Of a stretch of DNA of 32,000 bases, positions 19,547 through 32,000 are shown piece by piece. The notes under the pieces are model-generated. The model worked only from the letters and a program-made list of their open reading frames with translations, did not search any database and was not told where the DNA came from. Position 1 is the first letter of the stretch. Each line of letters opens with the position of its first letter. A program made the position numbers and the translations under genes. Location of the stretch: the NCBI RefSeq assembly GCF_007748075.1, contig NZ_CP036280.1, positions 3,120,001 through 3,152,000 on the forward strand. The letters are read 5' to 3'. Source of the DNA: Mucisphaera calidilacus. GTDB lineage: Bacteria > Planctomycetota > Phycisphaerae > Phycisphaerales > Phycisphaeraceae.

Positions 19547-20572
19547 ATGGATGATGGTCTGATCGTGGAGGCGACGGGGGGCGGGGTTGAGCGTGCGTCG
19601 GCGGCGCTGGGGCGTGGTGAGCTGGTGGGCATGCCTACGGAGACGGTTTACGGGTTGGCGGCGGATGCGTTGAATGAGCGTGCGGTGGCGCGTGTGTTTG
19701 AGGCGAAGGGCCGTCCGCGGTTTGATCCTTTGATTGTTCACGTCGGGGATGCGGGTGCGGCGGCGGGTTTGGTATCGGAGTGGCCGGAGCGGGCGCGGCT
19801 GCTGGCGGAGCGTTTCTGGCCGGGTCCGTTGACGCTGGTGCTTCCCAAGCGGGGGTTGGTTCCTGATCTGGTGACGGCGGGTCTGGATTCGGTGGCGGTG
19901 CGTTGCCCGGAGCATCCGGTGGCGTTGGGGTTGATTCGTGCGTTCGGGGGTCCGGTGGCGGCGCCGAGTGCGAACCGGTTTGGTGGGATCAGCCCGACGG
20001 CGGCGGAGCACGTGGTTTCGGAGTTGGGTGCGTCGGTGTCGTTGGTTCTGGATGGTGGTCCTTGTGGTCGGGGGTTGGAGTCGACGGTGGTGGGGTTGAC
20101 GGGTGAGCGTGCGACGCTATTGCGTCCCGGGGCGTTGGCGATTGAGTTGATCGAGGGTGTGGTGGGGGCGTTGGAGCGTGTTGCTGCGTCCGATAACCCG
20201 TCGCGGCCGCAGGTTTCGCCGGGGCGGATGGATCGTCACTATGCGCCGCGTACGCCTATGTTGACGTTCGGAGCGGCGGTGCCTGATCGTGAGATCATCG
20301 TTCGCGCGGCGGGTGGTGCGGATGTGCCGGTGGCGTTGATGACGCTTGGGCCGGGTCACCCGGCGGCGGGGGTGTACGGGTGGCATGAGCAGGTGGTTCT
20401 GAGCGAGACGGGTGACTTGACGGAGGTGGCGGCGGGCTTGTTTGCGGCGTTGCGTCGTCTGGATGAGGGTTCTGCGGGTCTGATTGTGGCGGAACATCCG
20501 ATAAAAGCGTCCGGTTTAGGGCCCGCGATCCGCGACAGGCTAGCCCGCGGGTCGATGGTTCAATCTTTCTGA
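19547..20572 (+). CDS. tsaC: L-threonylcarbamoyladenylate synthase, long Sua5 form (YrdC domain + Sua5 C-terminal domain)
   Basis: GELVGMPTETVYGLAADA...KGRPRFDPLIVHV...GPLTLVLP...VAVRCPEHP...APSANRFGGISPT. The ~340-aa length implies the extra Sua5 domain. ATG 19547 is preferred over TTG 19508. Confidence 0.9.
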   Translation: MDDGLIVEATGGGVERASAALGRGELVGMPTETVYGLAADALNERAVARVFEAKGRPRFDPLIVHVGDAGAAAGLVSEWPERARLLAERFWPGPLTLVLPKRGLVPDLVTAGLDSVAVRCPEHPVALGLIRAFGGPVAAPSANRFGGISPTAAEHVVSELGASVSLVLDGGPCGRGLESTVVGLTGERATLLRPGALAIELIEGVVGALERVAASDNPSRPQVSPGRMDRHYAPRTPMLTFGAAVPDREIIVRAAGGADVPVALMTLGPGHPAAGVYGWHEQVVLSETGDLTEVAAGLFAALRRLDEGSAGLIVAEHPIKASGLGPAIRDRLARGSMVQSF

Positions 20573-20591
20573 AATTTCGGGGTTCTTCTGA

Positions 20592-20619
20592 TTGACAAGA
20601 CTGAAGACTCCGATATCTT
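20592..20619 (+). promoter_or_regulatory. putative sigma70-type promoter TTGACA-16 nt-TATCTT
   Basis: A perfect -35 at 20592-20597 and TATCTT at 20614-20619, in a locally AT-richer intergenic patch 20 nt after the tsaC stop. Confidence 0.4.
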
Positions 20620-20625
20620 TAATGC

Positions 20626-20876
20626 GGAAGTCGGGCGAACATCCGGCTTCCACAACCGGCCCCCTCAGCCACGGCCGGGCCCGAGCCTGACGCAAGAATG
20701 ACGGGCGGGCGGATCCTGAGGGGGACTTTGACAACTTGGGTTTCAGGAGCCTGGCGCGGTCTCGTTCGTCTTCCCGACAGCCCCACCCCTTTCCGATTTC
20801 TCTTCTCAGAAGACCCCTTGCTCCACCCATAGTTTCAACCGTCGACTCCCTAATCGGGGTCGACGGTTGTTTTTTT
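20626..20876 (+). ncRNA. candidate ~250-nt structured non-coding transcript or leader (class unknown)
   Basis: Bounded by the promoter-like element above and a strong intrinsic terminator. Local helices are visible by eye: GGAAGUCGG/CCGGCUUCC (20627-20651) and the long-range pair CCCCCUCAG (20661-20669)/CUGAGGGGG (20716-20724). It contains no convincing ORF. Confidence 0.35.
20836..20876 (+). terminator. rho-independent terminator
   Basis: caaccgtcgac-t-ccc taatc ggg gtcgacggttg forms a ~13-14 bp stem with one bulge and a 5-nt loop, followed by TTTTTTT (20870-20876). Confidence 0.8.
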
Positions 20877-20940
20877 GCGCGCAGGGGAGGAGGTCGCAGG
20901 GCTCGTGGTTCGGGGGCGCGGCGTGGGCATGCTGGTGTGT

Positions 20941-20964
20941 GGGGTGGGGAGGGGTGTTGGGGGG
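20941..20964 (+). other. canonical G-quadruplex motif GGGG-T-GGGG-A-GGGG-TGTT-GGGGGG on the sense strand of the ATPase leader
   Basis: Direct read. Four G4+ tracts with loops of 1, 1 and 4 nt, ending 33 nt before the ATPase ATG. Confidence 0.5.
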
Positions 20965-20997
20965 TATGAAATGTGATTGTGACGCTATGATGCCCGC

Positions 20998-23019
20998 ATG
21001 GCACACGACTTTGTTAAAGATCAGTTTCATTTGGATGCCGAGGGCGGTCGCCTGGGGCTTCAGATCATTCTCACGCTGCTGGGCGGCACGCTGCTGATTG
21101 CATCGGCTGTTGCTTACGGCATTTACGAGAACAACGACACGGCGCAGCTTTTTGCGGCGGCGGCGACGATTCTGCTCGCGGGTCCGTTGATCTGGACGGC
21201 GGCGATGGAGATTCTGCATGGTCATCAGCACATGAATGAGCTGGTGGCGTTGGCGGTGCTGGCGGCGTTTGCGACGGGTCAATACATCGAGGCGGGCGCG
21301 ATCGCCTTCTTCATGATCATTTCGGTGCTGATCGAGAACCGGACGGCGTTGGGTGCTCAGAAGTCGATTGAGAGTCTGGTTCGGATCACGCCGACGCGTG
21401 CGTTCCGCGTTGTGGGTGATCAGGAGGAGGAGATTGATGCGGCGTCGCTTTCGCCTGGCGACGTGGTTCGGGTTCGTCCTGGTGACAACATTCCGGCGGA
21501 CGGCGTGATTGATCGTGGTGCGTCGACGGTGGATCAGGCGAACATCACGGGTGAGTCGTTTCCTGTGGAGAAGGAGGAGGGGGACGAGGTTTACTCGGGC
21601 ACGATCAACCTGACGGGTGTGATGGAGATCCGGGTGACGTCGGCGGGCGAGGACACGACGCTGGGTCGAGTGAAGGAGATGATTCTTCAGGCGGAGCAGA
21701 CGAAGGCTCCGTTCATGCGGATGATTGATCGATATGCGTCGTGGTATACGCCTACGGTGCTGATGCTGACGTTCATGGTGTGGTTTTTCGTGAGTCAGAC
21801 GGACCCGACGGAGGCGGCGTCGCGAGCGATTTCGATGCTGGTGATCGCGTGTCCGTGTGCGTTGATTCTGGCGACGCCTACGGCGATGGTGGCTTCGTTG
21901 TCGGCGGCGGCGCGTCTGGGCGTGCTGGTGAAGTCGGTGGTGAATCTGGAGGCGGCGCGTGGGTTGACGTCGGTGATTTTCGACAAGACGGGCACGTTGA
22001 CGACGGGTTCGCTTGAGGTTTCGCGGCTGGCGCCGGCCGAGGGTGTTGATGGTGCGGACCTGCTGCGTTCGGCGGCGTCGGCGGAGCAGAACTCGCGTCA
22101 CCCGGTGGCGCGTGCGGTGTTTGGGGTGGCGCGAAAGGCTCGTCTGGAGCTGACGGAGCCGGTGGATTTCGAGGAGGTTGCGGGCAAGGGCGTGCGGACG
22201 CGTATCGGCGAGGACTGGGTTCTGGTGGGTCGGGGCACGTGGCTGGCTGAGGAGCAGATCAGTGACGGGGCGCGTGGGGTGATCGAGCAGATCGGGTCGT
22301 CGGCTGAGACGGAGGGTCTGTCGGTTCTGTACGTGGTTCGGAACGGTGAGTTTCTGGGTTGGATCGGTCTGGCGGACAACACGCGTGGGGAGGCGGCGCA
22401 CGCGGTGGACTGGCTACGGAACCTGGGCATCAAGCGGATGGTGATGTGCACGGGCGACCGGGAGTCGGTGGCCAAGCGTGTGGCGGAGCAGTTGAACACG
22501 GAGTACCAGGCTGAGGTTCTGCCTGGCGAGAAGCTGGAGTTGGTGGATCAGCTCAAGGGTCGTGGCCACAGTGTGGCGATGGTGGGTGACGGTGTGAATG
22601 ACGCGCCGGCGTTGGCGGCGGGTGACATTTCGATTGCGATGGGTGCGGCGGGTTCGGACGTTGCGATTCACTCGGCGTCGATCGTGATCAACAACAACAA
22701 TCTGAACCGGATCCCGTTCCTGATTGATCTGAGTCGTCGGACGCACGCGGTGGTGCTTCAGAACCTGGCGTTGGGCGGCGTGTTCGTGATTGCGGGTCTG
22801 GCGCTCTCGGCGATCGGTTACATCCCGGCGATTGCGGCGGCGGTTCTGCACGTGGTGAGTTCGCTGATCGTGATCTTCAACTCGGCGCGTCTGGTGCGTG
22901 TGGGTGAGGAGATCGAGGAGATGGAGGCGAAGGGTCTGGACCGGAAGCATGGTCAGCGTGCGGCGGCTCGCTCGGGTTCGGGCGACGGGGCTGCGGCGGG
23001 CGGTCTGGTTCCGGCGTGA
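20998..23019 (+). CDS. heavy-metal-translocating P1B-type ATPase (CPC motif, no N-terminal metal-binding domain)
   Basis: TGES (ITGESFPV), CPC in a TM helix (LVIACPCALILATP), DKTGTLT phosphorylation site, SRHPVARAV, and the GDGVNDAPALA hinge. 8-TM layout. Confidence 0.95.
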   Translation: MAHDFVKDQFHLDAEGGRLGLQIILTLLGGTLLIASAVAYGIYENNDTAQLFAAAATILLAGPLIWTAAMEILHGHQHMNELVALAVLAAFATGQYIEAGAIAFFMIISVLIENRTALGAQKSIESLVRITPTRAFRVVGDQEEEIDAASLSPGDVVRVRPGDNIPADGVIDRGASTVDQANITGESFPVEKEEGDEVYSGTINLTGVMEIRVTSAGEDTTLGRVKEMILQAEQTKAPFMRMIDRYASWYTPTVLMLTFMVWFFVSQTDPTEAASRAISMLVIACPCALILATPTAMVASLSAAARLGVLVKSVVNLEAARGLTSVIFDKTGTLTTGSLEVSRLAPAEGVDGADLLRSAASAEQNSRHPVARAVFGVARKARLELTEPVDFEEVAGKGVRTRIGEDWVLVGRGTWLAEEQISDGARGVIEQIGSSAETEGLSVLYVVRNGEFLGWIGLADNTRGEAAHAVDWLRNLGIKRMVMCTGDRESVAKRVAEQLNTEYQAEVLPGEKLELVDQLKGRGHSVAMVGDGVNDAPALAAGDISIAMGAAGSDVAIHSASIVINNNNLNRIPFLIDLSRRTHAVVLQNLALGGVFVIAGLALSAIGYIPAIAAAVLHVVSSLIVIFNSARLVRVGEEIEEMEAKGLDRKHGQRAAARSGSGDGAAAGGLVPA

Positions 23020-23036
23020 TGGTGGGGTTTGGGGGG

Positions 23037-24104
23037 TCAGCCGACTTCGCGGCTCTGGAAGAGCCCGACGGCGAGGCTGAGTACGACGCCGGCGTAGAGG
23101 GATCCGTAGGCGACGATGCTTGCGATGTAGGTGAGGGTGAAGGGGTTGCCCTGGGTGATGGCGTCGGCGGGCCAGAAGTACTGGAAGTTGGGGAGCAGGA
23201 GGTAGAGTGATTTCACGCAGAGGAAGATGGCTTTGACGCCCAGGGAGATTTCGGCGTTGGCGATGGCCTGAGCGGTGGGGATCCAGCCGTACCCGACGGG
23301 GACGTGGACTTGCTGGTCGACCCAGTTGGAGAGGAATCCGGCGGTGACGCCCAGGCCGAGTACGCCCAGGCAGATCATGAGCGTCATGACCTGTCCGAGT
23401 CGTGTTGAGGCGGCGATGGCGACGGCGGCGATGACCATGACGCCTTGGAAGACGAGGATGAGTCCGAGGAGGGTTTGTGCGAGTTCGGCGTTGTGCTGGG
23501 TGAGGTCGTGCCAGGGTGCCTGGAGGGTGAATTCCTTGCCGATGACGAGGACGAGGAGGAAGGCGGCGGTGAGTGTGATGGCGAGGGTTTTCATGAGGAT
23601 GGAGGTGAAGACCCATCGGTAGAGGTAGTTTCCGGCGGTGGCGATGAACATCGATCCGGCGATGGCGGCGCATCCGAAGAGGATGACGGGGATGTCGAAG
23701 TCGTCGCGAGCGGTCTGCATGACGCGGTGTCGGATGGTGAGTGCGAAGACGGCGGCGAGGATCCAGAAGGCGAGTGTGATGGCGGCGGCGACGCCTGCGA
23801 ACTTCCCGAGGACGAAGATGGGTCGGTTGACGGGTTTTGAGATGACGGTGAGGACGGTTCGGTTCTCGATTTCGGTGGCGAGGACGCCTGTGGCGGAGAA
23901 GGCTGAGAGGAAGAGTCCTGCGAGGAGGACGGTGGAGAGGCCGAGGTCGATCATCAGCTTGTTGTCGTTTTCGAGGGTGTAGGCGGCGAGCATGGGGTTG
24001 ATGACGAGCATGATGATGCCTACGAGGGTGATGACCACGTAGACGGGCTGTCGGATGGCTTCGGAGAAGGTGTTGGCTGCGATGGACCAGAACTGTTGAA
24101 GCAT
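23037..24104 (-). CDS. ABC-2-type transporter permease (NosY/GldF-like)
   Basis: Polytopic membrane protein with ATEIENRTVLTVISKPVNRPIFVLGKFAGV, a motif paralogous to ATEFGQKQIYMTLTKPVSRWQYLLGKWLGI in the 30042..31892 product. Confidence 0.8.
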   Translation of the reverse strand: MLQQFWSIAANTFSEAIRQPVYVVITLVGIIMLVINPMLAAYTLENDNKLMIDLGLSTVLLAGLFLSAFSATGVLATEIENRTVLTVISKPVNRPIFVLGKFAGVAAAITLAFWILAAVFALTIRHRVMQTARDDFDIPVILFGCAAIAGSMFIATAGNYLYRWVFTSILMKTLAITLTAAFLLVLVIGKEFTLQAPWHDLTQHNAELAQTLLGLILVFQGVMVIAAVAIAASTRLGQVMTLMICLGVLGLGVTAGFLSNWVDQQVHVPVGYGWIPTAQAIANAEISLGVKAIFLCVKSLYLLLPNFQYFWPADAITQGNPFTLTYIASIVAYGSLYAGVVLSLAVGLFQSREVG

Positions 24105-24314
24105 TCGTGGAGCTCGTGGGAGGAGGGGGTTAGTCGCCGCTTGTTCCTGTTAGCGGGTATCATACGTCGTTCCCCGCGGGCCTCGGCAGGGTCTGTCAAG
24201 GGTATTACAATCCGGTCCCGTCCCGCCGTCCGGGGCTCCGGTTCTGCTCCGGAAGCTGGTTCAGGGCGTTCTGGGGGGTGAGGGATCGGGACTGAGACGC
24301 ACTTTCGATAAGGA

Positions 24315-26402
24315 ATGCTGCAGCTGATGGCACACGACGCACAGACTTACCGCAGGGCGACGAACGCGGCCATTCTGGGGTTAGCGACACAGGCGGGTTT
24401 GTTTGTGGCGTTTGGTTTGCTGGGGTTGTATGCGGAGTCGGGTGCGATCAACGCGTTGGCGTGGCACACGCTGGCGGGTCTGCCGGTGTGGGTGATTCTG
24501 ATTGTTTTTTATTACCAGCAGCGTCTGGAGCGTGAGGAAGCGCTCGAGGCGGAGCGGATGTCGCGTTCGGACGTTCGTGCGGCGGCGTTGTTTGAGGAGG
24601 CGGGTGCGAATCTTCAGCTGGCTCGTCAGCGGCTGGAGTGGCTGAGCAAGTGGGGTCTGACGATCGTCTCGATCCTGACGGCGGTGGTGATGCTGATCAT
24701 CGGGCCGGTGTTTCTCTATGACCATTACGTGCGGTTTTCGACGGATTCGATCGAGCCGTGGGTTCGGGGGGACCTGAGTCACGGGCTGCTGATTATTTTG
24801 CTGGCGGCGTTTGGTTTTGTGGCGTTTCTGGTGGGTCGTTTCGTGTCGGGCATGACCAAGACGGACGCGTGGGTAGAGCTTCGTGGTGGTGCGGGGACGA
24901 TGCTGGGCGTGGTGTTCCTGGCGTTGCTGGGGATCGTGGCGGCGTTGGTGCACCTTCTGGGATTTGAGCCGGCGTTTGCGTGGCTGGCGATCGCGGTGCC
25001 GGGCGTGACGACGCTGCTGGGTCTGGAGATCGTGGCGAGTCTGGTTCTGGGTGTTTATCAGCCGCGTCGGCCCGGGGCGTTTCGTCGTCCGGCGTTTGAC
25101 AGTCGGTTGCTGGGGTGGATGTCGAGTCCGGAGTCGATCGGGAAGATCGTTTCGGAGACGCTGGCTTATCAGTTTGGGTTTGATTTTTCGCGGAGTTATG
25201 CGTACCGGCAGGTGATGAAGATGCTGACGCCTATGTTCGCTGTGGGCGTTCTGGCGTTGTTTGCGATGACGTGTGTGGTGGTGGTTCAGCCGCATCAGGA
25301 GGCGGTGGTGACGCGTTTTGGTGCGTTGGTGACGGACGAGGAGCCGTTGAAGGCGGGCCTGCACTTCAAGCTGCCGTGGCCGATCAGCCAGATTCACCGT
25401 CACGACGTGTACCGGGTGAGTGAGTTGATGGTGGGTTCGAGCGCGGATGCCAAGCGTTTCCGTGACCGAGCGATCCTGTGGACGAACGAGCATGTCGAGG
25501 GTGGTGACGAGACGTACCTGGTGACGGCGCCGTCGCGTTTCCCGGATCAGCCTCAGGCTGAGGACGTGGTTGCGGGCGAGTTGATGGGTGGTGACATCCT
25601 GGTGAAGTACCGGATTCGACCGGGCGGCGGTTTGATTGAGTATGTGGGCAGCGCGGCGGATCCGAAGGGGTTGTTTAAGTCGGTGGTGGCCGGCGAGGTG
25701 AACGAGTTTTTCTCGACGCATCAGGTTGATGATCTGCTGCGTGCGTACCGGTTGTCGGCGAGCGGCACGCTTCGGGCCTCGATGCAGGCGAAGGCGGACG
25801 AGCTTTCGTTGGGGATTGAGGTGTTGTCGGTGTCGGTGATCAGCATGCACCCGCCTCAGAAGGGCGAGGTTGCGGACAGTTTTCACGATCAGATCAACGC
25901 GGTTCAGGAGAGTCGTTCGGAGTTGAATCGTGCGGAGCGTGACGCGATGACGACGCTGGCTGAGGTGGCGGGATCGCGTGAGAAGGCGATGGACATCGAC
26001 TCGGCGATTCTGGAGCTGGAGCGTCTTCGTCTGGAGACGGCGGAGACGGGGGTGGATCGTTCGGAGGCGATCGCGGTGCAGTCGGCGTTGATCGAGGAGC
26101 GTGTGAGCGAGGCGGGCGGTCAGGCGGCCCAGCTGATTGCGCAGGCGCGGGCGTTCCGCTGGACGTTTGCGGTGCAGGAGTTGGCGAAGTCGGAGCAGTT
26201 TGTGGCGGAGATCGCGGCGTACGAGCGTGCGCCGGCCTACTTCAAGACGCGTCGTTATTACGAGGCGTTGAAGGCGGGTTTGAAGAACCGTCCGAAGATC
26301 GTGATGACGGACCCGGCGAGCGAGGCGGAGGGTGATGCGCGTGTTCTGCAGCTGGATCTGACCGAGGCCCGCACGGGTCTGGAGTCGATCCTCGGGAACT
26401 GA
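24315..26402 (+). CDS. SPFH/Band-7 domain protein with ~300-aa polytopic N-terminal membrane domain
   Basis: About 7 predicted TM helices, then VVVVQPHQEAVVTRFGALVTDEEPLKAGLHFKLPWPISQIH (SPFH core), then a long coiled-coil-like tail. ATG 24327 is an alternative start. Confidence 0.85.
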   Translation: MLQLMAHDAQTYRRATNAAILGLATQAGLFVAFGLLGLYAESGAINALAWHTLAGLPVWVILIVFYYQQRLEREEALEAERMSRSDVRAAALFEEAGANLQLARQRLEWLSKWGLTIVSILTAVVMLIIGPVFLYDHYVRFSTDSIEPWVRGDLSHGLLIILLAAFGFVAFLVGRFVSGMTKTDAWVELRGGAGTMLGVVFLALLGIVAALVHLLGFEPAFAWLAIAVPGVTTLLGLEIVASLVLGVYQPRRPGAFRRPAFDSRLLGWMSSPESIGKIVSETLAYQFGFDFSRSYAYRQVMKMLTPMFAVGVLALFAMTCVVVVQPHQEAVVTRFGALVTDEEPLKAGLHFKLPWPISQIHRHDVYRVSELMVGSSADAKRFRDRAILWTNEHVEGGDETYLVTAPSRFPDQPQAEDVVAGELMGGDILVKYRIRPGGGLIEYVGSAADPKGLFKSVVAGEVNEFFSTHQVDDLLRAYRLSASGTLRASMQAKADELSLGIEVLSVSVISMHPPQKGEVADSFHDQINAVQESRSELNRAERDAMTTLAEVAGSREKAMDIDSAILELERLRLETAETGVDRSEAIAVQSALIEERVSEAGGQAAQLIAQARAFRWTFAVQELAKSEQFVAEIAAYERAPAYFKTRRYYEALKAGLKNRPKIVMTDPASEAEGDARVLQLDLTEARTGLESILGN

Positions 26403-26475
26403 GTTGATCGGACGGAACGAAGGAACTGGAACCACGACCCGGACGTATAGTCCTGAAGCACAGAGTCAAGGCCCC

Positions 26476-27381
26476 ATGAAAGATCACATCTGGACCCTCA
26501 TCATTGCCGTTGCCGTCGTTTGCGTGCTGCTGTTCTACACGTTCAGCTACACGGTTCGCTATGACGAGGTTGCGGTGATCACGCGTTTTGATTCGGTGGT
26601 TGGTGACGTTGCGGTGGAGGAGCCGGGTCTTGGCTTCCGGTGGCCGCTGCCGATTGACCGTGTTTACAAGTATTCGAAGAAGCTGCAGCTGCTTGAGGAT
26701 CAGCTCGAGGAGTTCCAGACGTCGGACGGTTACGCGGTGATTCTGCGGACGGACCTGACGTGGCGTATCGAGGACCCGATCGCGTTTTTCCGGAGTCTTC
26801 GGACGGTGGAGAAGGCGCAGGAGCAGTTGCGGCCTTTGATTCGTGAGTTGACGGCGGTGGTGAGCAAGTATCGTTTTGATCAGCTGGTGAACAACGACCC
26901 TTCGATGCTGGCGTTGCCTGAGATCGAGGCGGCGGCGAAGGCGGAGTTAACGTCGAAGCTGGCGGGTCTGGGTTTTGGCATCGCGATCGAGCGTGTGGGT
27001 GTTCGTCGCCTGATTCTGCCTGAGTCGACGACGGAGAAGGTGTTTGAGCGTATGCGTACGACGCGTGAGGCGTTGGCGGAGAAGGCTCGTGCGGAGGGTC
27101 GTGCGCGTGCGTCGACGATCCGTTCGGACGCGGAGTCGGCGCGTGACCGGATTCTGGCGTTTGCCCAGCGTCGTGCGGAGGGGATTCGTTCGGAGGGTCT
27201 CCAGGAGGCGGCGTCGTATTACGAGGCGTTCAAGCAGAACGAGGAGTTGGCGATCTTCCTGAACGCGATGCAGAGTCTTCAGGAGATTCTGGCGAACAAC
27301 ACGAAGTTCATTCTCGATTCGGGTCAGATCGGCGCGAGCGAGCTGTTCGGCGAGGTTGAGGGTGTGTCTGAGGACGAGTGA
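26476..27381 (+). CDS. SPFH/Band-7 protein, HflC-like topology
   Basis: MKDHIWTLIIAVAVVCVLLFYTF (a single N-terminal TM) followed by VRYDEVAVITRFD...GLGFRWPLPIDRVYKYS. ATG 26476 is preferred over TTG 26404. Confidence 0.85.
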   Translation: MKDHIWTLIIAVAVVCVLLFYTFSYTVRYDEVAVITRFDSVVGDVAVEEPGLGFRWPLPIDRVYKYSKKLQLLEDQLEEFQTSDGYAVILRTDLTWRIEDPIAFFRSLRTVEKAQEQLRPLIRELTAVVSKYRFDQLVNNDPSMLALPEIEAAAKAELTSKLAGLGFGIAIERVGVRRLILPESTTEKVFERMRTTREALAEKARAEGRARASTIRSDAESARDRILAFAQRRAEGIRSEGLQEAASYYEAFKQNEELAIFLNAMQSLQEILANNTKFILDSGQIGASELFGEVEGVSEDE

Positions 27382-27435
27382 TCGGTGTCTGCCGGCGTGG
27401 GTCGGCATTGCGATAAGCGGAACGATTGAGTTGCT

Positions 27436-28770
27436 ATGAACGATACGCGTGACCCACTGACCGAGCTTGAGCCGACGCAGCCTGCTGTTGAGGCGGCGGA
27501 CTCGATGGATGCTCAGGAGCTGGATGCGGCGCAGCAGTCGCTGGCTGACGCGATGCAGGTGAGTTTTCGTCTGCTGACCGTGATCATGGTGTGCCTGGTG
27601 CTGTTTTACATTTTCGGGTCCGGCTGGTTCCAGGTGTCGGAGCAGGAGAAGGCGGTTCGTCTGTTCTTCGGCGAGATCGCGGGGGATCAGAGCCAGCAGG
27701 TTCTGGAGCCGGGCTGGAAGCCGAATTGGCCTTACCCGGTGGGCGAGAACGTGCGTATCCCGACGGCGCCGCGGACGATCATGATTGACAAGGCGTTCTG
27801 GTTCGAGGTGACCGAGCGTGATCAGGGCAAGACGCTTGACGAGATGGCGGGTGGTGCGGGTCCGTTGAACCCGGAGCTGGACGGGGCGTTGATCACGGGT
27901 GACGCGAACGTGGTGCACGCGCAGTTTGAGGCGTCGTACCGGATCGGTGACGGGCCGAGTGATCCGATCAATTACGTGACGAACGTGGGTGATGTGGCGT
28001 TGGCGGATGCGTTGGTGCGTTCGGCGGCGGAGTCGGGGATTATCCGTGCGGTGGCGGAGGTTGAGGCGGACGACGCGGTGCGTGGCCGTATCAACCAGAA
28101 CCGTGCGAAGCTGTACGCGAACGAGATTCTGGACGGGTTGGCGACGGGGATCGAGATCACGACGCTTCCTGCGAAGCGGACGACGATGCCCTTGTCGGTG
28201 CTGGCGGCTTATCGTCAGGTGAATGATGCGGAGTCGGAGCGAGCGAACCTGATCAACCAGGCGCGTCAGGAGGCGACGCAGATTCTTCGTGACACGGCGG
28301 GTCCGGGCGCGGACGGGTTGTTCCGTCTGATCCAGGACTTTGAGCTGGCGCAGTCGGCGGGTGATGCGGAGCGAGCGGCTGAACTTCAGGCGTTGCTGGA
28401 CCGGTCGCTGACGGATCAGCGTCTGCCTGAGGCGTATGGCGGCGAGCCGATCGTGGGCGAGGTGCGTTCGACGCTGAACGGGGCGTTGGCGTTCCGGACG
28501 CAGGAGGTGGAGCAGATCCGCACGGAGGTTCAGCGGTTTGAGTCGCTTTTGGAGATGCATGGCGAGGTGCCTGCGATCGTGGAGAACCGTGTGCGTGAGA
28601 ACGCACGGCGTGCGATTCTGGGCGGCGAGGACAACGAGGCGTTCTGGCTGGCTCCGGGCGAGATCCGTATTCAGGTGAATCGTGACCCGGATGTTCAGCG
28701 GCGTGTTGACGAGCGGCGTCTGCAGGCGATTCAGGAGCAGAGCAACGAGCGTCGCGAGGTGATCCGATAG
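27436..28770 (+). CDS. SPFH/Band-7 protein, HflK-like topology
   Basis: Acidic N-terminal tail, one TM (FRLLTVIMVCLVLFYIF), an SPFH core (QVSEQEKAVRLFFGEI...EPGWKPNWPYPVGE), and a helical C-terminal region. Confidence 0.85.
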   Translation: MNDTRDPLTELEPTQPAVEAADSMDAQELDAAQQSLADAMQVSFRLLTVIMVCLVLFYIFGSGWFQVSEQEKAVRLFFGEIAGDQSQQVLEPGWKPNWPYPVGENVRIPTAPRTIMIDKAFWFEVTERDQGKTLDEMAGGAGPLNPELDGALITGDANVVHAQFEASYRIGDGPSDPINYVTNVGDVALADALVRSAAESGIIRAVAEVEADDAVRGRINQNRAKLYANEILDGLATGIEITTLPAKRTTMPLSVLAAYRQVNDAESERANLINQARQEATQILRDTAGPGADGLFRLIQDFELAQSAGDAERAAELQALLDRSLTDQRLPEAYGGEPIVGEVRSTLNGALAFRTQEVEQIRTEVQRFESLLEMHGEVPAIVENRVRENARRAILGGEDNEAFWLAPGEIRIQVNRDPDVQRRVDERRLQAIQEQSNERREVIR

Positions 28771-28790
28771 GACCGCTGGCAGGAACCGTT

Positions 28791-30029
28791 ATGGCAGAAG
28801 CCCCCGTGAGTGACAACCAGGCGGTGATCCGTTGCCTGGACCTGACCAAGACGTTCAAGGATTTCTGGTTGCGTGACCGTGTTCGTGCGGTGGACGCGAT
28901 TGATCTGGACGTGTTTCGTGGCGAGGTGTTTGGTCTGCTGGGTCCGAACGGTTCGGGCAAGTCGACGACGATCAAGATGATTCTGGGTCTGCTTCGGCCG
29001 ACGTCGGGCCAGATCGCGGTGCTGGGCAAGCACCCGGAGGACGTGTCGGTCAAGCGTCACATCGGTTATCTGCCCGAGGAGTCGTACCTGTATCGTTTTC
29101 TGACGGCGCGTGAGACGCTGGAGTATTACGCTCGGCTGTTCGGTCTGAATGGTCGTCAGCGGAAGACGCGTGTGGACACGCTGCTGGAGCTGGTGGGATT
29201 GACGCACGCGGAGCGTCGTCCGGTGGGCGAATTTTCGAAGGGTATGCAGCGGAAGATCGGTCTGGCGCAGGCGTTGGTGAACGACCCGGAGATTCTGATT
29301 CTGGACGAGCCGACGACGGGCATGGACCCGATCGCGACGGCGGACGTGAAGAAGATTCTGCTGACGCTCAAGTCGCGTGGCAAGACGGTGATTCTGTGTT
29401 CGCACCTGCTGGCGGACGTGGAGTCGGTGTGCGACCGTGTGTCGATCATGTTTGGTGGTCGGGTTCGTGCGGAGGGCCCGGTGAACGAGTTGCTGACGGA
29501 CTCGGGCAAGACGACGCTTGAGACGGCGCACCTGTCGGAGTCTGAGGTTCAGGCGGTGGAGGAGGCGTTGCGTTCTCGTGGCAAGGCGTTGGATGCGGTT
29601 CGTCAGCCGCGGACGTCGCTTGAGGACCTGTTCCTGGACATCGTGAAGCAGGCGGAGCGTGAGGGTTTGTCGACGAGTGGTGCGCGTTCGGGTGCCGAGG
29701 TGACGGGCTTCCTTGCGGAGGGTGCTGAGGGCGGGTCGTCGGCGGATGATCCGGACCGGCTGATCGCGGACCTAGTGGGTCGTCAGCGTTCGGAGGCGGC
29801 TGAGCCGTCGGATGCGAAGCGTGGTGTCGAGGTGCCGCCGCCACCCGGTCGCACGGACCCTGCGATGGAGGAGGCGACGGAGGTTCTGGACGATCTGATC
29901 CAGCAGCGTTTCGAGCCGTCTGCCGAGGGCGGTGGTGATGCGTCGGAGTCTGCGTCTGAGGAGGCGAAGGATTCGGATTCGGTTGACCGTTCGCTGATCG
30001 ATGACCTAACGCAGCGCGATAAGGATTAA
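28791..30029 (+). CDS. ABC transporter ATP-binding protein with ~170-aa acidic, low-complexity C-terminal extension
   Basis: Walker A GPNGSGKST, signature FSKGMQRK, Walker B ILILDEPTTGMD, and an H-loop CSH. The tail is rich in E/D/S/A. Confidence 0.95.
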   Translation: MAEAPVSDNQAVIRCLDLTKTFKDFWLRDRVRAVDAIDLDVFRGEVFGLLGPNGSGKSTTIKMILGLLRPTSGQIAVLGKHPEDVSVKRHIGYLPEESYLYRFLTARETLEYYARLFGLNGRQRKTRVDTLLELVGLTHAERRPVGEFSKGMQRKIGLAQALVNDPEILILDEPTTGMDPIATADVKKILLTLKSRGKTVILCSHLLADVESVCDRVSIMFGGRVRAEGPVNELLTDSGKTTLETAHLSESEVQAVEEALRSRGKALDAVRQPRTSLEDLFLDIVKQAEREGLSTSGARSGAEVTGFLAEGAEGGSSADDPDRLIADLVGRQRSEAAEPSDAKRGVEVPPPPGRTDPAMEEATEVLDDLIQQRFEPSAEGGGDASESASEEAKDSDSVDRSLIDDLTQRDKD

Positions 30030-30041
30030 GCCCGCGCGATC

Positions 30042-31892
30042 ATGAAGACCCGTCCCCTTCCCCTGATGCTGACGGCCTTGAGCCTCGTCGTGTTGAACGT
30101 CGTGGTGTGTGCTTTTTTGCTGGTGCAGGGTTACGTGCTGGCGTCGGGCGTGGTGGGTGTTCTGGCGTCGCTGGTGGTTCTGGGGATGTTTGTGTTCGCG
30201 ATGGTTCGTCACCAGGACGTTCCGTGGGTGGCGACGGCGGGTCAGTACGCGAGCGGGTTGACGTTGGCGTTGGCGTGTCTGGGTGTGTGTGTGCTGATGG
30301 ACTGGCCGGACGGCGTTCCGGTGGTTGTCGGTTTTTACGTGATGGGTCTGAGTTTTTTCCTGGGGGTGCGTTTGATTCGGCTGTTGCTGCGGTCGGGTCA
30401 TCCGATCCTGGGCGTGGCGCGGACGCTGGTGGACGAGTCGCTTCGGATGCGTGTGCCGCTGGTGTTTCTGATTCTGATGCTGTTTCTGGTGCCGAGTCTG
30501 CCGCTGGTGATGGACCCGGAGGAGCGTCTGGCGTACCGGGTGGCGAGTTTTCTGAGCTGGGCGATGCTGGCGTCGTCGGGTTTGCTGAGTCTGCTGACGG
30601 TGTTTCTGGCGGTGGGGACGGTGGCGACGGAGTTTGGTCAGAAGCAGATTTACATGACGCTGACCAAGCCGGTGTCGCGTTGGCAGTATCTGCTGGGCAA
30701 GTGGCTGGGGATCGTGCTGCTGAACGTGTTGCTGGTGGGGATTTCGGGTGCGGGGATTTACACGTTCACGCGTCTGATTGCGAGTCAGCCGGCGTTGGAT
30801 GGTCGTGACCGGATGGCGGTGGATGCTCAGGTGCTGGCGTCGCGGGTGGCGATCGGTCCTGAGATGTCGAGTCCGGAGGCGGTGCAGAATCAGGTGAGGC
30901 GTCAGCTGCTTCGTTTGCAGGCGGAGGACCCGGCGGCGTATGGGGATCCGGTGGACCCGAATGACGGGGAGGCGTTGCAGCGTGCGTTGGATCGTTTGTC
31001 GCCTGAGGCGGTGAATCGGATCCGGACGATCGTGATTGGGGAGTGGTTGTCGATCGGTCCGCGGAGCAGCCGTGTGTATCGGTTTACGGATCTGCTGGAC
31101 GCGCGGGCGTTGGGGGGGAACATCCAGTTCCGCGTGGAGCCGAACGGTCGCGGGCCGACGCCTGGGGGCATGGTGGAGCTGCGTATGCGGCTGAACCAGC
31201 GGCCTTATTTCAGTTCGGTGTTCCCGGACGGCCGTATCCGTCTTTCGGAGGAGACGTTTCACGTTCTGGATCTTCCGGTGGAGGCGATCGACGATTCGGG
31301 TGTGCTTGAGATCGAGTTGATCAACAACCTGGAGGGTCAGGCGTCGGTGAGTTTCAGCCCGGCGGACGGGATGCAGCTGCTTTACCGGGTGGACACGTTC
31401 GAGAACAATTTTCTGCGTGCGATGTTGTTGTTGTGGACGCGTCTGGCGTTTACCGCGATGGCGTCGCTGGCGGCGGCGTCGTTTCTGGGGTTCCCGGTGG
31501 CGTGTCTGCTGGCGTTGCTGATTTATTTTGGTGCGGCGACCTCGGCGTTTCTGAATGAGGCGTTGGTGTGGTTCTCGGACAAGCCGCCTGCGGACGCGGG
31601 CGTGGTGGAGGTGCTGCTTTGGTACCCGGCGGTGATCGTGGCGAAGCTGTCGGAGGGTGAGATTGTTGATGCGATCAAGATCGTGATCCGAGCGATCGGT
31701 CTGATGTTTATGTCGCTGGTGCCTTCGTTCAGCGATTACACGGCGAACGAGCCGATCGCGAAGGGGTTGCACGTGGGCTGGGGTGTGGTGGGGATGGCGT
31801 TTTTGTGGGTGAGCGGGATCTGGACGGCGGTGGTGTTTGTTGCGGGTTATGTGATGCTGCGCAACCGCGAGCCTGCCGAGGTGATTGTGTGA
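30042..31892 (+). CDS. large ABC-2-type permease with ~230-aa extracytoplasmic insert
   Basis: 616 aa. N-terminal TM bundle, the TKPVSRWQYLLGKWLG ABC-2 motif, a soluble segment (~residues 250-470), then C-terminal TM helices. It starts 12 nt after the ATPase stop. Confidence 0.8.
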   Translation: MKTRPLPLMLTALSLVVLNVVVCAFLLVQGYVLASGVVGVLASLVVLGMFVFAMVRHQDVPWVATAGQYASGLTLALACLGVCVLMDWPDGVPVVVGFYVMGLSFFLGVRLIRLLLRSGHPILGVARTLVDESLRMRVPLVFLILMLFLVPSLPLVMDPEERLAYRVASFLSWAMLASSGLLSLLTVFLAVGTVATEFGQKQIYMTLTKPVSRWQYLLGKWLGIVLLNVLLVGISGAGIYTFTRLIASQPALDGRDRMAVDAQVLASRVAIGPEMSSPEAVQNQVRRQLLRLQAEDPAAYGDPVDPNDGEALQRALDRLSPEAVNRIRTIVIGEWLSIGPRSSRVYRFTDLLDARALGGNIQFRVEPNGRGPTPGGMVELRMRLNQRPYFSSVFPDGRIRLSEETFHVLDLPVEAIDDSGVLEIELINNLEGQASVSFSPADGMQLLYRVDTFENNFLRAMLLLWTRLAFTAMASLAAASFLGFPVACLLALLIYFGAATSAFLNEALVWFSDKPPADAGVVEVLLWYPAVIVAKLSEGEIVDAIKIVIRAIGLMFMSLVPSFSDYTANEPIAKGLHVGWGVVGMAFLWVSGIWTAVVFVAGYVMLRNREPAEVIV

Positions 31893-31936
31893 TGAGAACC
31901 GTCGGGCGTTGGCCCGCGTAGTGTCTGGTTGAAACC

Positions 31937-32000
31937 ATGCGTCGAACCCGAACCATTCAGGTTGTGAGTCTGATTACCGCGGCGGCGTTGCTGGTTGGTG
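31937..32000 (+). CDS. 5' end of a further gene (signal/anchor-like MRRTRTIQVVSLITAAALLVG...)
   Basis: ATG 31937 lies 44 nt after the permease stop on the same strand. It encodes a basic N-terminus followed by a hydrophobic stretch and is truncated by the window end. Confidence 0.35.
   Translation, partial: MRRTRTIQVVSLITAAALLVG

Follow-up and report, generated by a model that had tools for sequence, protein, structure and literature searches.

We analyzed a stretch of 32,000 nucleotides (nt) from Mucisphaera calidilacus (contig NZ_CP036280.1, positions 3,120,001 to 3,152,000), here called the window, which is taken from a single-contig 3.49-Mb genome whose nearest relatives are Mucisphaera and Phycisphaeraceae. 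An eight-gene membrane cluster spans window position 20998 to about 34066, in coordinates extended beyond the window end. It is conserved across Planctomycetota and is a merger of two modules, each of which is also found separately. As judged from their sequences, module A is composed of three HflK/HflC-derived SPFH genes in fixed order (SPFH1, SPFH2, and SPFH3, hereafter the trio) and a P1B-type ATPase, and module B is an ABC-2 unit of one ABC ATPase, two NosY-like permeases (perm355 and perm616), and a predicted membrane-anchored periplasmic alpha-solenoid, g7. A preliminary description of the locus had presented an operon of SPFH and ABC-2 genes; this operon-like linkage is real, but the P1B ATPase, the more widely conserved partner of the trio, had been left out of it.

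The P-type ATPase gene (20998–23019, plus strand) encodes a P1B (heavy-metal) type protein of 673 aa without an HMA domain (TIGR01525, 567 bits), the only P1B ATPase of this genome, and adjoins the cluster 18 nt from the stop codon of perm355. The latter (23037–24104, minus strand) is an ABC-2-like permease with about 8–10 hydrophobic segments (ABC2_membrane_2 E = 1.8e-4, below the cut-off), and is separated from SPFH1 by a divergent intergenic region at 24105–24314. The plus-strand genes follow in the order SPFH1 (24315 or 24327 to 26402; HflK-like, 691 aa, or 695 aa from 24315), SPFH2 (26476–27381; HflC-like, 301 aa, with one N-terminal transmembrane [TM] segment), SPFH3 (27436–28770; HflK-like, 444 aa, with a single TM segment at residues 42–60), the ABC ATPase (28791–30029; DrrA/GldA type, 412 aa, with an acidic C-terminal tail), perm616 (30042–31892; a NosY-like ABC-2 permease with extra N-terminal TM helices), and g7 (31937–32000, continuing 2066 nt beyond the window end; 709 aa once the window sequence is joined to its flank). 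The gaps from SPFH1 through perm616 are 73, 54, 20, and 12 nt, and perm616 is separated from g7 by 44 nt. The open reading frame positions thereby bear out the five co-directional genes, their spacing, the divergent permease, and the further gene at 31937 that had been described.

All three SPFH proteins score above the Pfam threshold for Band_7 (PF01145; 54.3 bits for SPFH1, 94.2 for SPFH2, and 44.5 for SPFH3 vs a cut-off of 23.6). By NCBIfam ranking, SPFH1 and SPFH3 are HflK-like and SPFH2 is HflC-like, as first labeled, with all three below the equivalog cut-offs: SPFH1 and SPFH3 reach 83.2 and 67 bits for hflK (TIGR01933, cut-off 159.4), and SPFH2 reaches 130.3 bits for hflC (TIGR01932, cut-off 134.4). 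A canonical hflK–hflC pair (266 and 262 bits) is encoded elsewhere in the genome, at about 1977100–1979070 (L084:1604-3573, minus strand); SPFH2 shares 28% identity with this canonical HflC (E = 1e-24), and SPFH3 24.5% with the canonical HflK. By these comparisons the trio is an additional, divergent HflK/C-derived set beside the canonical pair. A small NfeD-like gene (180 aa, NfeD_membrane + NfeD; L084:6703-7245) lies about 3 kb from the canonical pair on the other strand. FtsH is encoded once in the genome, at 0.67 Mb, whose NfeD-like genes lie at 1.98 and 3.26 Mb. As already observed in the preliminary description, no FtsH or NfeD gene lies within the cluster; this carries no weight as an argument, because the canonical hflK–hflC pair is likewise unlinked to ftsH, so that the absence of FtsH beside the trio is uninformative. 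In general, hflKC is normally unlinked to ftsH.

SPFH1 has an N-terminal domain of about 300 aa, with six TM helices and a cytoplasmic helical hairpin according to hydropathy and an AlphaFold model (pLDDT 83). The multi-TM domain had thus been recognized correctly, and its count of about seven TM helices resolves into six plus the SPFH anchor helix. The domain contains a strongly conserved RPAFDSRLLGW...YQFGF segment and is followed by the anchor TM, an HflK-type SPFH domain, and long coiled-coil helices. The best Foldseek match of the SPFH1 model is HflK (7vhq_E, E = 8e-13), and structures of stomatin, prohibitin, and erlin are matched as well. A search with the N-domain matched 793 clusters (50% identity level); of the 150 listed, nearly all are 650–750 aa long. 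Seven SPFH1 N-domains compared with Pfam at E <= 10 gave nothing meaningful, leaving this domain without a family assignment. An identity as a cation diffusion facilitator (CDF) was considered and rejected: Foldseek matches to ZnT/YiiP are weak (E 0.007–0.02), PF01545 is matched by only one of the seven N-domains (E = 0.67), and the conserved TM residues listed are Q22, W55, F167, and E234, with no His or Asp and not mapped onto the CDF site. The predicted topology is N-in, with the SPFH domains periplasmic and the ABC ATPase tail cytoplasmic.

A maximum-likelihood tree of 39 P1B ATPases unites all cluster-linked planctomycete ATPases, including relocated orthologues, in one clade (support 95/91). 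The HmtA clade (95/91) is the sister of this clade and does not enclose it, and other P1B paralogues of the same genomes fall outside both. A motif in the last TM helix, LH..(S/T)...N(S/A)xRL, is common to the cluster-linked and HmtA clades, many members of which have a His-rich N-terminus; the window ATPase carries it as LHvvSS...FNSARL. The window protein is about equally far from the solved structures of CopA, ZntA, and CoaT. Its TM4 motif (window 21846–21860) is CPC, as in the Phycisphaerae relatives, and distant cluster-linked orthologues have CPS, CPT, CPG, CPL, or TPC in its place. The second Cys of the TM4 motif defines the classical P1B subgroups; it is not conserved in the cluster-linked clade, because the distant orthologues carry other residues.

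For the ABC-2 module, the preliminary assignment holds for the ABC ATPase at the level of Pfam (ABC_tran, 120.7 bits). Both permeases remain below the ABC2_membrane cut-off (21.3 and 23.9 bits vs 27.2), and a profile built from perm616 orthologues matches NosY (7o0y_D, E = 5e-6). As had been proposed for the two permeases, perm355 and perm616 are paralogues, with the relationship seen in their C-terminal halves (hhalign 96%). The insert of perm616, described as about 230 aa, covers residues about 240–467 (~228 aa), is hydrophilic without any predicted TM segment, and is probably periplasmic. The acidic tail of the ABC ATPase, described as about 170 aa, measures 167 aa with 40 D/E versus 19 K/R. 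A long tail accompanies the trio: ABC ATPases with an adjacent trio are long (median 421 aa, 57 of 58 being at least 368 aa), those in genomes with a trio present but unlinked are also long (418–440 aa), and those in loci without an adjacent trio, most of them from genomes without an SPFH1 match in our survey (see below), are mostly short (285–344 aa).

The last member of the module, g7, was modeled with AlphaFold through a 70%-identical orthologue (L001; pLDDT 84.8, pTM 0.82), in which an N-terminal signal-anchor helix leads into an all-alpha TPR-like solenoid; the positive-inside rule predicts a periplasmic location. Pfam assigns g7 to no family, a profile search of the PDB was empty, and Foldseek of the model against the PDB found no match at E <= 0.001, only generic alpha-solenoids (E >= 0.008, TM-score about 0.13). 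Of the 43 Phycisphaerae loci with sufficient downstream flank, about 41 have g7 immediately behind perm616 (41 of the 46 listed), and among the Phycisphaerae loci compared none without ABC genes has it. Several identities for the accessory proteins were rejected. The GldAFG system is not matched (GldA 198 bits vs a cut-off of 402.6, GldF 17.8 vs 288.5); the earlier suggestion of a GldG-like component failed along with it, as neither perm616 nor g7 has a GldG or ABC_transp_aux match. NosD-like and NfeD-like readings were unsupported, and a screen for antiphage defense with PADLOC gave generic ABC-ATPase matches only, leaving the SPFH proteins, both permeases, g7, and the P-type ATPase unmatched.

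The divergent region between perm355 and SPFH1 contains a promoter-like site for the plus-strand operon at 24183–24211. At 24159–24166, some 55 nt ahead of the perm355 start, there is a ATCATACG motif; read on the minus strand it is TATGAT, probably the -10 box of that gene. The motif recurs as ATCATACG / CATGATACG in the 12 perm355/SPFH1 divergent regions displayed out of 55 extracted (window and L001–L014). No terminator-like site was found by scanning the intergenic gaps of the plus-strand genes (24315–31892). Because a gene on the opposite strand separates the P-type ATPase from the trio in the window, the ATPase needs its own promoter there. Upstream of it, the segment 20592–20876 holds a promoter-like site and, after this, a strong terminator-like hairpin (14-bp stem, T7), an element that might be a leader/attenuator or a separate small RNA. 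An Rfam scan of 20300–24400, covering the ATPase leader and the divergent region in search of a metal riboswitch, gave no match at E <= 1, and neither the sequence upstream of the ATPase nor the divergent region has inverted repeats or operator-like palindromes.

To place the cluster among its relatives, we scanned one genome per GTDB species and found 429 loci encoding a relative of SPFH1, of which the best 80 were examined; these 80 are all from Phycisphaerae or Planctomycetota. Linkage was counted in the 52 loci with at least 6.5 kb of downstream sequence. SPFH2 and SPFH3 are kept in all 52, and the ABC ATPase and perm616 lie downstream of the trio in 43; perm355 is found upstream in 40/40 fully informative loci with ABC genes and in 0/8 without them. 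In the nine loci without ABC genes, some of them from Phycisphaeraceae, the trio forms a stand-alone three-gene SPFH operon among unrelated housekeeping genes. A survey of 401 genomes of the phylum detected the SPFH1 N-domain in 69, including every genome of the window's own class that appears in the table, and perm616 homologues in 95; both occur in 61 genomes (Fisher p = 2.5e-38), and in 43 genomes perm616 is encoded on the same strand 4.7–7.6 kb downstream of the SPFH1 N-domain. Conservation of the neighborhood outside this genome, which the preliminary description had left to a survey, is thus evident from both counts.

In distant families, with 21–40% identity, the gene order is perm355, SPFH1, SPFH2, SPFH3, P1B ATPase, ABC ATPase, perm616, g7, and stop and start codons often overlap (by 4 nt) across all borders, those between the modules included. 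In the window and two other families, the P1B ATPase is found just upstream of an inverted perm355. The ATPase has been relocated and perm355 flipped, with both still adjacent to the cluster, which is a classical signature of selection for linkage. Two genomes of 9.3–9.5 Mb (G008 and G176) have SPFH1, SPFH2, SPFH3, the P-type ATPase, and the ABC ATPase at one locus (L095/L096 and L122/L123), and perm355 and perm616 together at a site megabases away; an ABC ATPase has thus stayed beside the trio where its permeases have not. One further planctomycete genome (G098) has two copies of the cluster (contigs C151 and C97; L093 and L094), one of which seems to be without the ABC ATPase. No gene family beyond the eight recurs around the cluster in the flanks of distant lineages. 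In M. calidilacus itself, genes for a dockerin-domain protein and a rhomboid protease follow beyond g7 on the opposite strand (2–4.5 kb past the window end; L086 2070-4446), and neither recurs among the distant and selected loci compared.

Module A is also found outside the Planctomycetota. A protein search of plasmid records recovered from Rhizobium sp. T1473 a trio followed by a P1B ATPase (717, 331, 346, and 648 aa) with 4-nt overlaps, and a plasmid of Burkholderia sp. FXe9 has a matching layout, in which the three SPFH genes are intact and annotated and the ATPase (L127 12308-14250) is split into two reading frames, probably as a pseudogene. Neither the Rhizobium locus (by tblastn) nor the Burkholderia locus contains an ABC-2 permease or solenoid gene; two weak ABC-ATPase-like tblastn matches lie about 2 kb downstream of the Rhizobium genes on the opposite strand. 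The SPFH1 profile and the Rhizobium protein can be aligned from TM3 of the N-domain as far as the C-terminus (hhalign 99.6%), and this protein in turn shares about 50% identity, across about 90% of its length, with "HflK" proteins of 650–716 aa in many Pseudomonas, including P. aeruginosa and P. syringae. In P. aeruginosa, the context consists of three Band_7 proteins (716, 335, and 346 aa), a 144-aa gene, and an E1-E2 ATPase (661 aa), which is the layout of PA2439–PA2435, the hmtA locus; P. syringae has the same context minus the 144-aa gene.

Several reports bear on this locus. The hmtA-containing cluster PA2434–PA2439 carries a putative, weak Zur box, and its expression rises 5.6- to 14.4-fold in a znuA mutant starved of zinc (PMC4542158); in proteomics, zinc depletion raises HmtA, PA2438, and PA2439 (PMC11761036). 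For HmtA, import of Zn and Cu has been reported (Lewinson 2009, reviewed in PMC8456098). The three SPFH proteins of this locus, PaFlo5, PaFlo6, and PaFlo7, are encoded in one operon that is patchy across classes, in a paper that makes no mention of the ATPase (PMC13086221). The preliminary description could name no characterized system with the architecture of the window. For the combination of SPFH and ABC-2 genes this stands, as the literature searched (SPFH with ABC transporter; HflK/HflC with Planctomycetes) holds no description of it, but the core of trio and P-type ATPase is that of the P. aeruginosa hmtA locus (PMC4542158). What is new is the Planctomycetota eight-gene form with ABC-2 genes added, and what is known but poorly understood is the HflK/C-derived, hmtA-type combination of an SPFH trio with a P1B ATPase.

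The most widely conserved partner of the trio is the metal pump, and since each module also occurs without the other, the trio is not dedicated to an ABC exporter. We propose, at about even chances, that the trio constitutes a periplasm-facing hetero-oligomeric assembly of the HflK/C type which serves the co-encoded transporters in transition-metal handling. The three SPFH proteins would co-assemble into one such ring or arc, whose clients would be the co-encoded transporters, either in place of FtsH or in addition to it. The metal pump would be the first client, with an HmtA-like pump as the ancestral partner of the trio, and the ABC-2 machine with its solenoid would be further clients in Planctomycetota. 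The assembly would organize a membrane patch for the handling of a transition metal, most likely a zinc-type ion, and there are two candidate contact surfaces: on the ABC ATPase its acidic tail, and on SPFH1 the conserved basic segment facing the cytoplasm (residues about 245–290). A bolder version, which we consider doubtful, is that the three-subunit assembly encloses the HmtA-like pump (in Planctomycetota together with the ABC-2 machine and its solenoid) and so makes a membrane-delimited nanocompartment in the periplasm, where a scarce transition metal would be acquired or handed over.

In favor of the proposal are the linkage of the genes in relatives and across the phylum, which has outlasted rearrangement, the gene order and codon overlaps of distant families, the four-gene core of Proteobacteria, the position of the ATPase clade as sister to HmtA, the reported zinc-depletion response of PA2435–PA2439, the existence of the trio in addition to a canonical pair, the HflK-type fold of SPFH1, the long ABC ATPase tail, and the lack of terminator-like sites between the plus-strand genes. 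A number of observations weigh against the proposal of a transporter-serving assembly. The ABC module is present elsewhere in all nine genomes whose trio stands alone, and in the six of these that were inspected it is intact with no trio beside it. In many other families of Planctomycetota the ABC unit (perm355, ABC ATPase, perm616, and g7) occurs without any SPFH gene or P-type ATPase and, conversely, Proteobacteria have the trio and ATPase without the ABC module. The correlation between a long ATPase tail and the trio is not phylogenetically independent. In the window, the P-type ATPase is split from the trio by the opposite-strand perm355 gene. As to metal specificity, orthologues differ in the last position of the TM4 CPx motif, where C, S, T, G, or L is found, and the His-rich N-terminus seen in many orthologues is missing from the window ATPase. 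Deletion of PaFlo5–7 in P. aeruginosa gave only subtle phenotypes (PMC13086221). A possible connection of the trio with FtsH also has to be counted here.

In an unlikely alternative, the trio is a second modulator of FtsH: it would bind the single FtsH of the cell and control turnover or quality control of the transporters, which would be its substrates and not its residents. The derivation of the trio from HflK/HflC and the single FtsH in the genome fit such a role, and the missing adjacency is not contrary to it, given that hflKC is normally unlinked to ftsH. The authors of the P. aeruginosa proteomics also note an interaction of HflK/C with the zinc metalloprotease FtsH (PMC11761036). However, a canonical hflK–hflC pair is already there and scores far above the cut-offs that the trio fails to reach, and the six-TM domain and the third subunit are without counterpart in the FtsH–HflK/C structures.

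Co-regulation only, in which the trio, the P-type ATPase, and the ABC-2 module would be members of a single regulon for stress or metal and stay next to each other so as to be expressed together, without any physical assembly, is in our judgment likewise improbable. It would accommodate the lineages in which a module is alone or unlinked, but in distant families the tight packing and the stop and start codons overlapping across module borders suggest co-translation of stoichiometric partners, the adjacency has survived several independent rearrangements, and a long ABC ATPase tail accompanies the trio. That the SPFH proteins form a hetero-oligomeric cage dedicated to the ABC-2 exporter and gating it, as the preliminary description had it, is very unlikely: SPFH3 is followed by the ABC ATPase after 20 nt, 43 of 52 loci have the ABC genes downstream, and the tail correlation would fit too, but the P-type ATPase is the sole partner of the trio in Rhizobium, Burkholderia, and Pseudomonas, with no ABC module, the ABC module is without a trio in many Planctomycetota, the two modules are apart in some Phycisphaeraceae too, and in distant families it is the P-type ATPase, not the ABC ATPase, that directly follows SPFH3.

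To our knowledge, HflK/C around FtsH is the only bacterial SPFH cage with a structurally known client. The cluster names genetically linked candidate clients for a bacterial SPFH scaffold, the P1B pump and the ABC-2 machine, in hundreds of species; if the nanocompartment were true, it would be the first bacterial SPFH cage with defined nonprotease clients. As the core is common to Pseudomonas, which is experimentally tractable and has a known zinc-starvation response, the question of whether SPFH proteins serve transporters becomes directly testable, and the answer would give a role to the unexplained HflK/C-like genes beside hmtA.

Among known systems, the P. aeruginosa hmtA locus is like the window cluster in having three consecutive SPFH genes in matching order (long multi-TM HflK-like, HflC-like, HflK-like) and an adjacent P1B ATPase of the HmtA lineage, to whose clade that of the window ATPase is sister. 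It differs in that no ABC-2 module or solenoid is called beside the Pseudomonas SPFH and ATPase genes, and in the extra 144-aa gene of P. aeruginosa (the PA2436 position), which is absent from the window; the window ATPase, in contrast, lies upstream, behind the inverted permease gene. Sequence identity is only about 24–38%. Zinc regulation and the reported Zn/Cu import come from the literature on P. aeruginosa. Stomatin/NfeD and flotillin/NfeD operons, among the SPFH1, SPFH2, and SPFH5 subfamilies (subfamily names, not our gene labels) of Hinderhofer et al. (2009, PMC2636767), likewise place an SPFH gene beside a presumed membrane partner; our cluster is without NfeD, and its trio is of the HflK/C type with a predicted periplasmic orientation. 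The searched passages of that paper hold no ABC-linked or P-type-ATPase-linked SPFH subfamily ("ABC" occurs 0 times).

NosDFY (PDB 7o0y) resembles module B through the match of the perm616 profile to NosY, a similarity at the family level only, and as an ABC-2 machine with a large periplasmic partner in a metal-related context. The partner in our cluster is, however, a predicted alpha-solenoid and not a beta-helix like NosD, there are two different permeases, and no NosL or NosZ context is seen. Escherichia coli HflK/HflC–FtsH (PDB 7vhp, 7wi3, and 9cz2) shares with the trio the SPFH domain and long coiled-coil fold, the N-in topology with a periplasmic SPFH domain, and the side-by-side alternation of HflK-like and HflC-like paralogues. 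In contrast to the E. coli complex, the trio has three subunits rather than two, a six-TM domain on SPFH1, scores below the equivalog cut-offs, and a separate canonical pair in the same genome, and its co-encoded candidate clients are transporters, not a protease.

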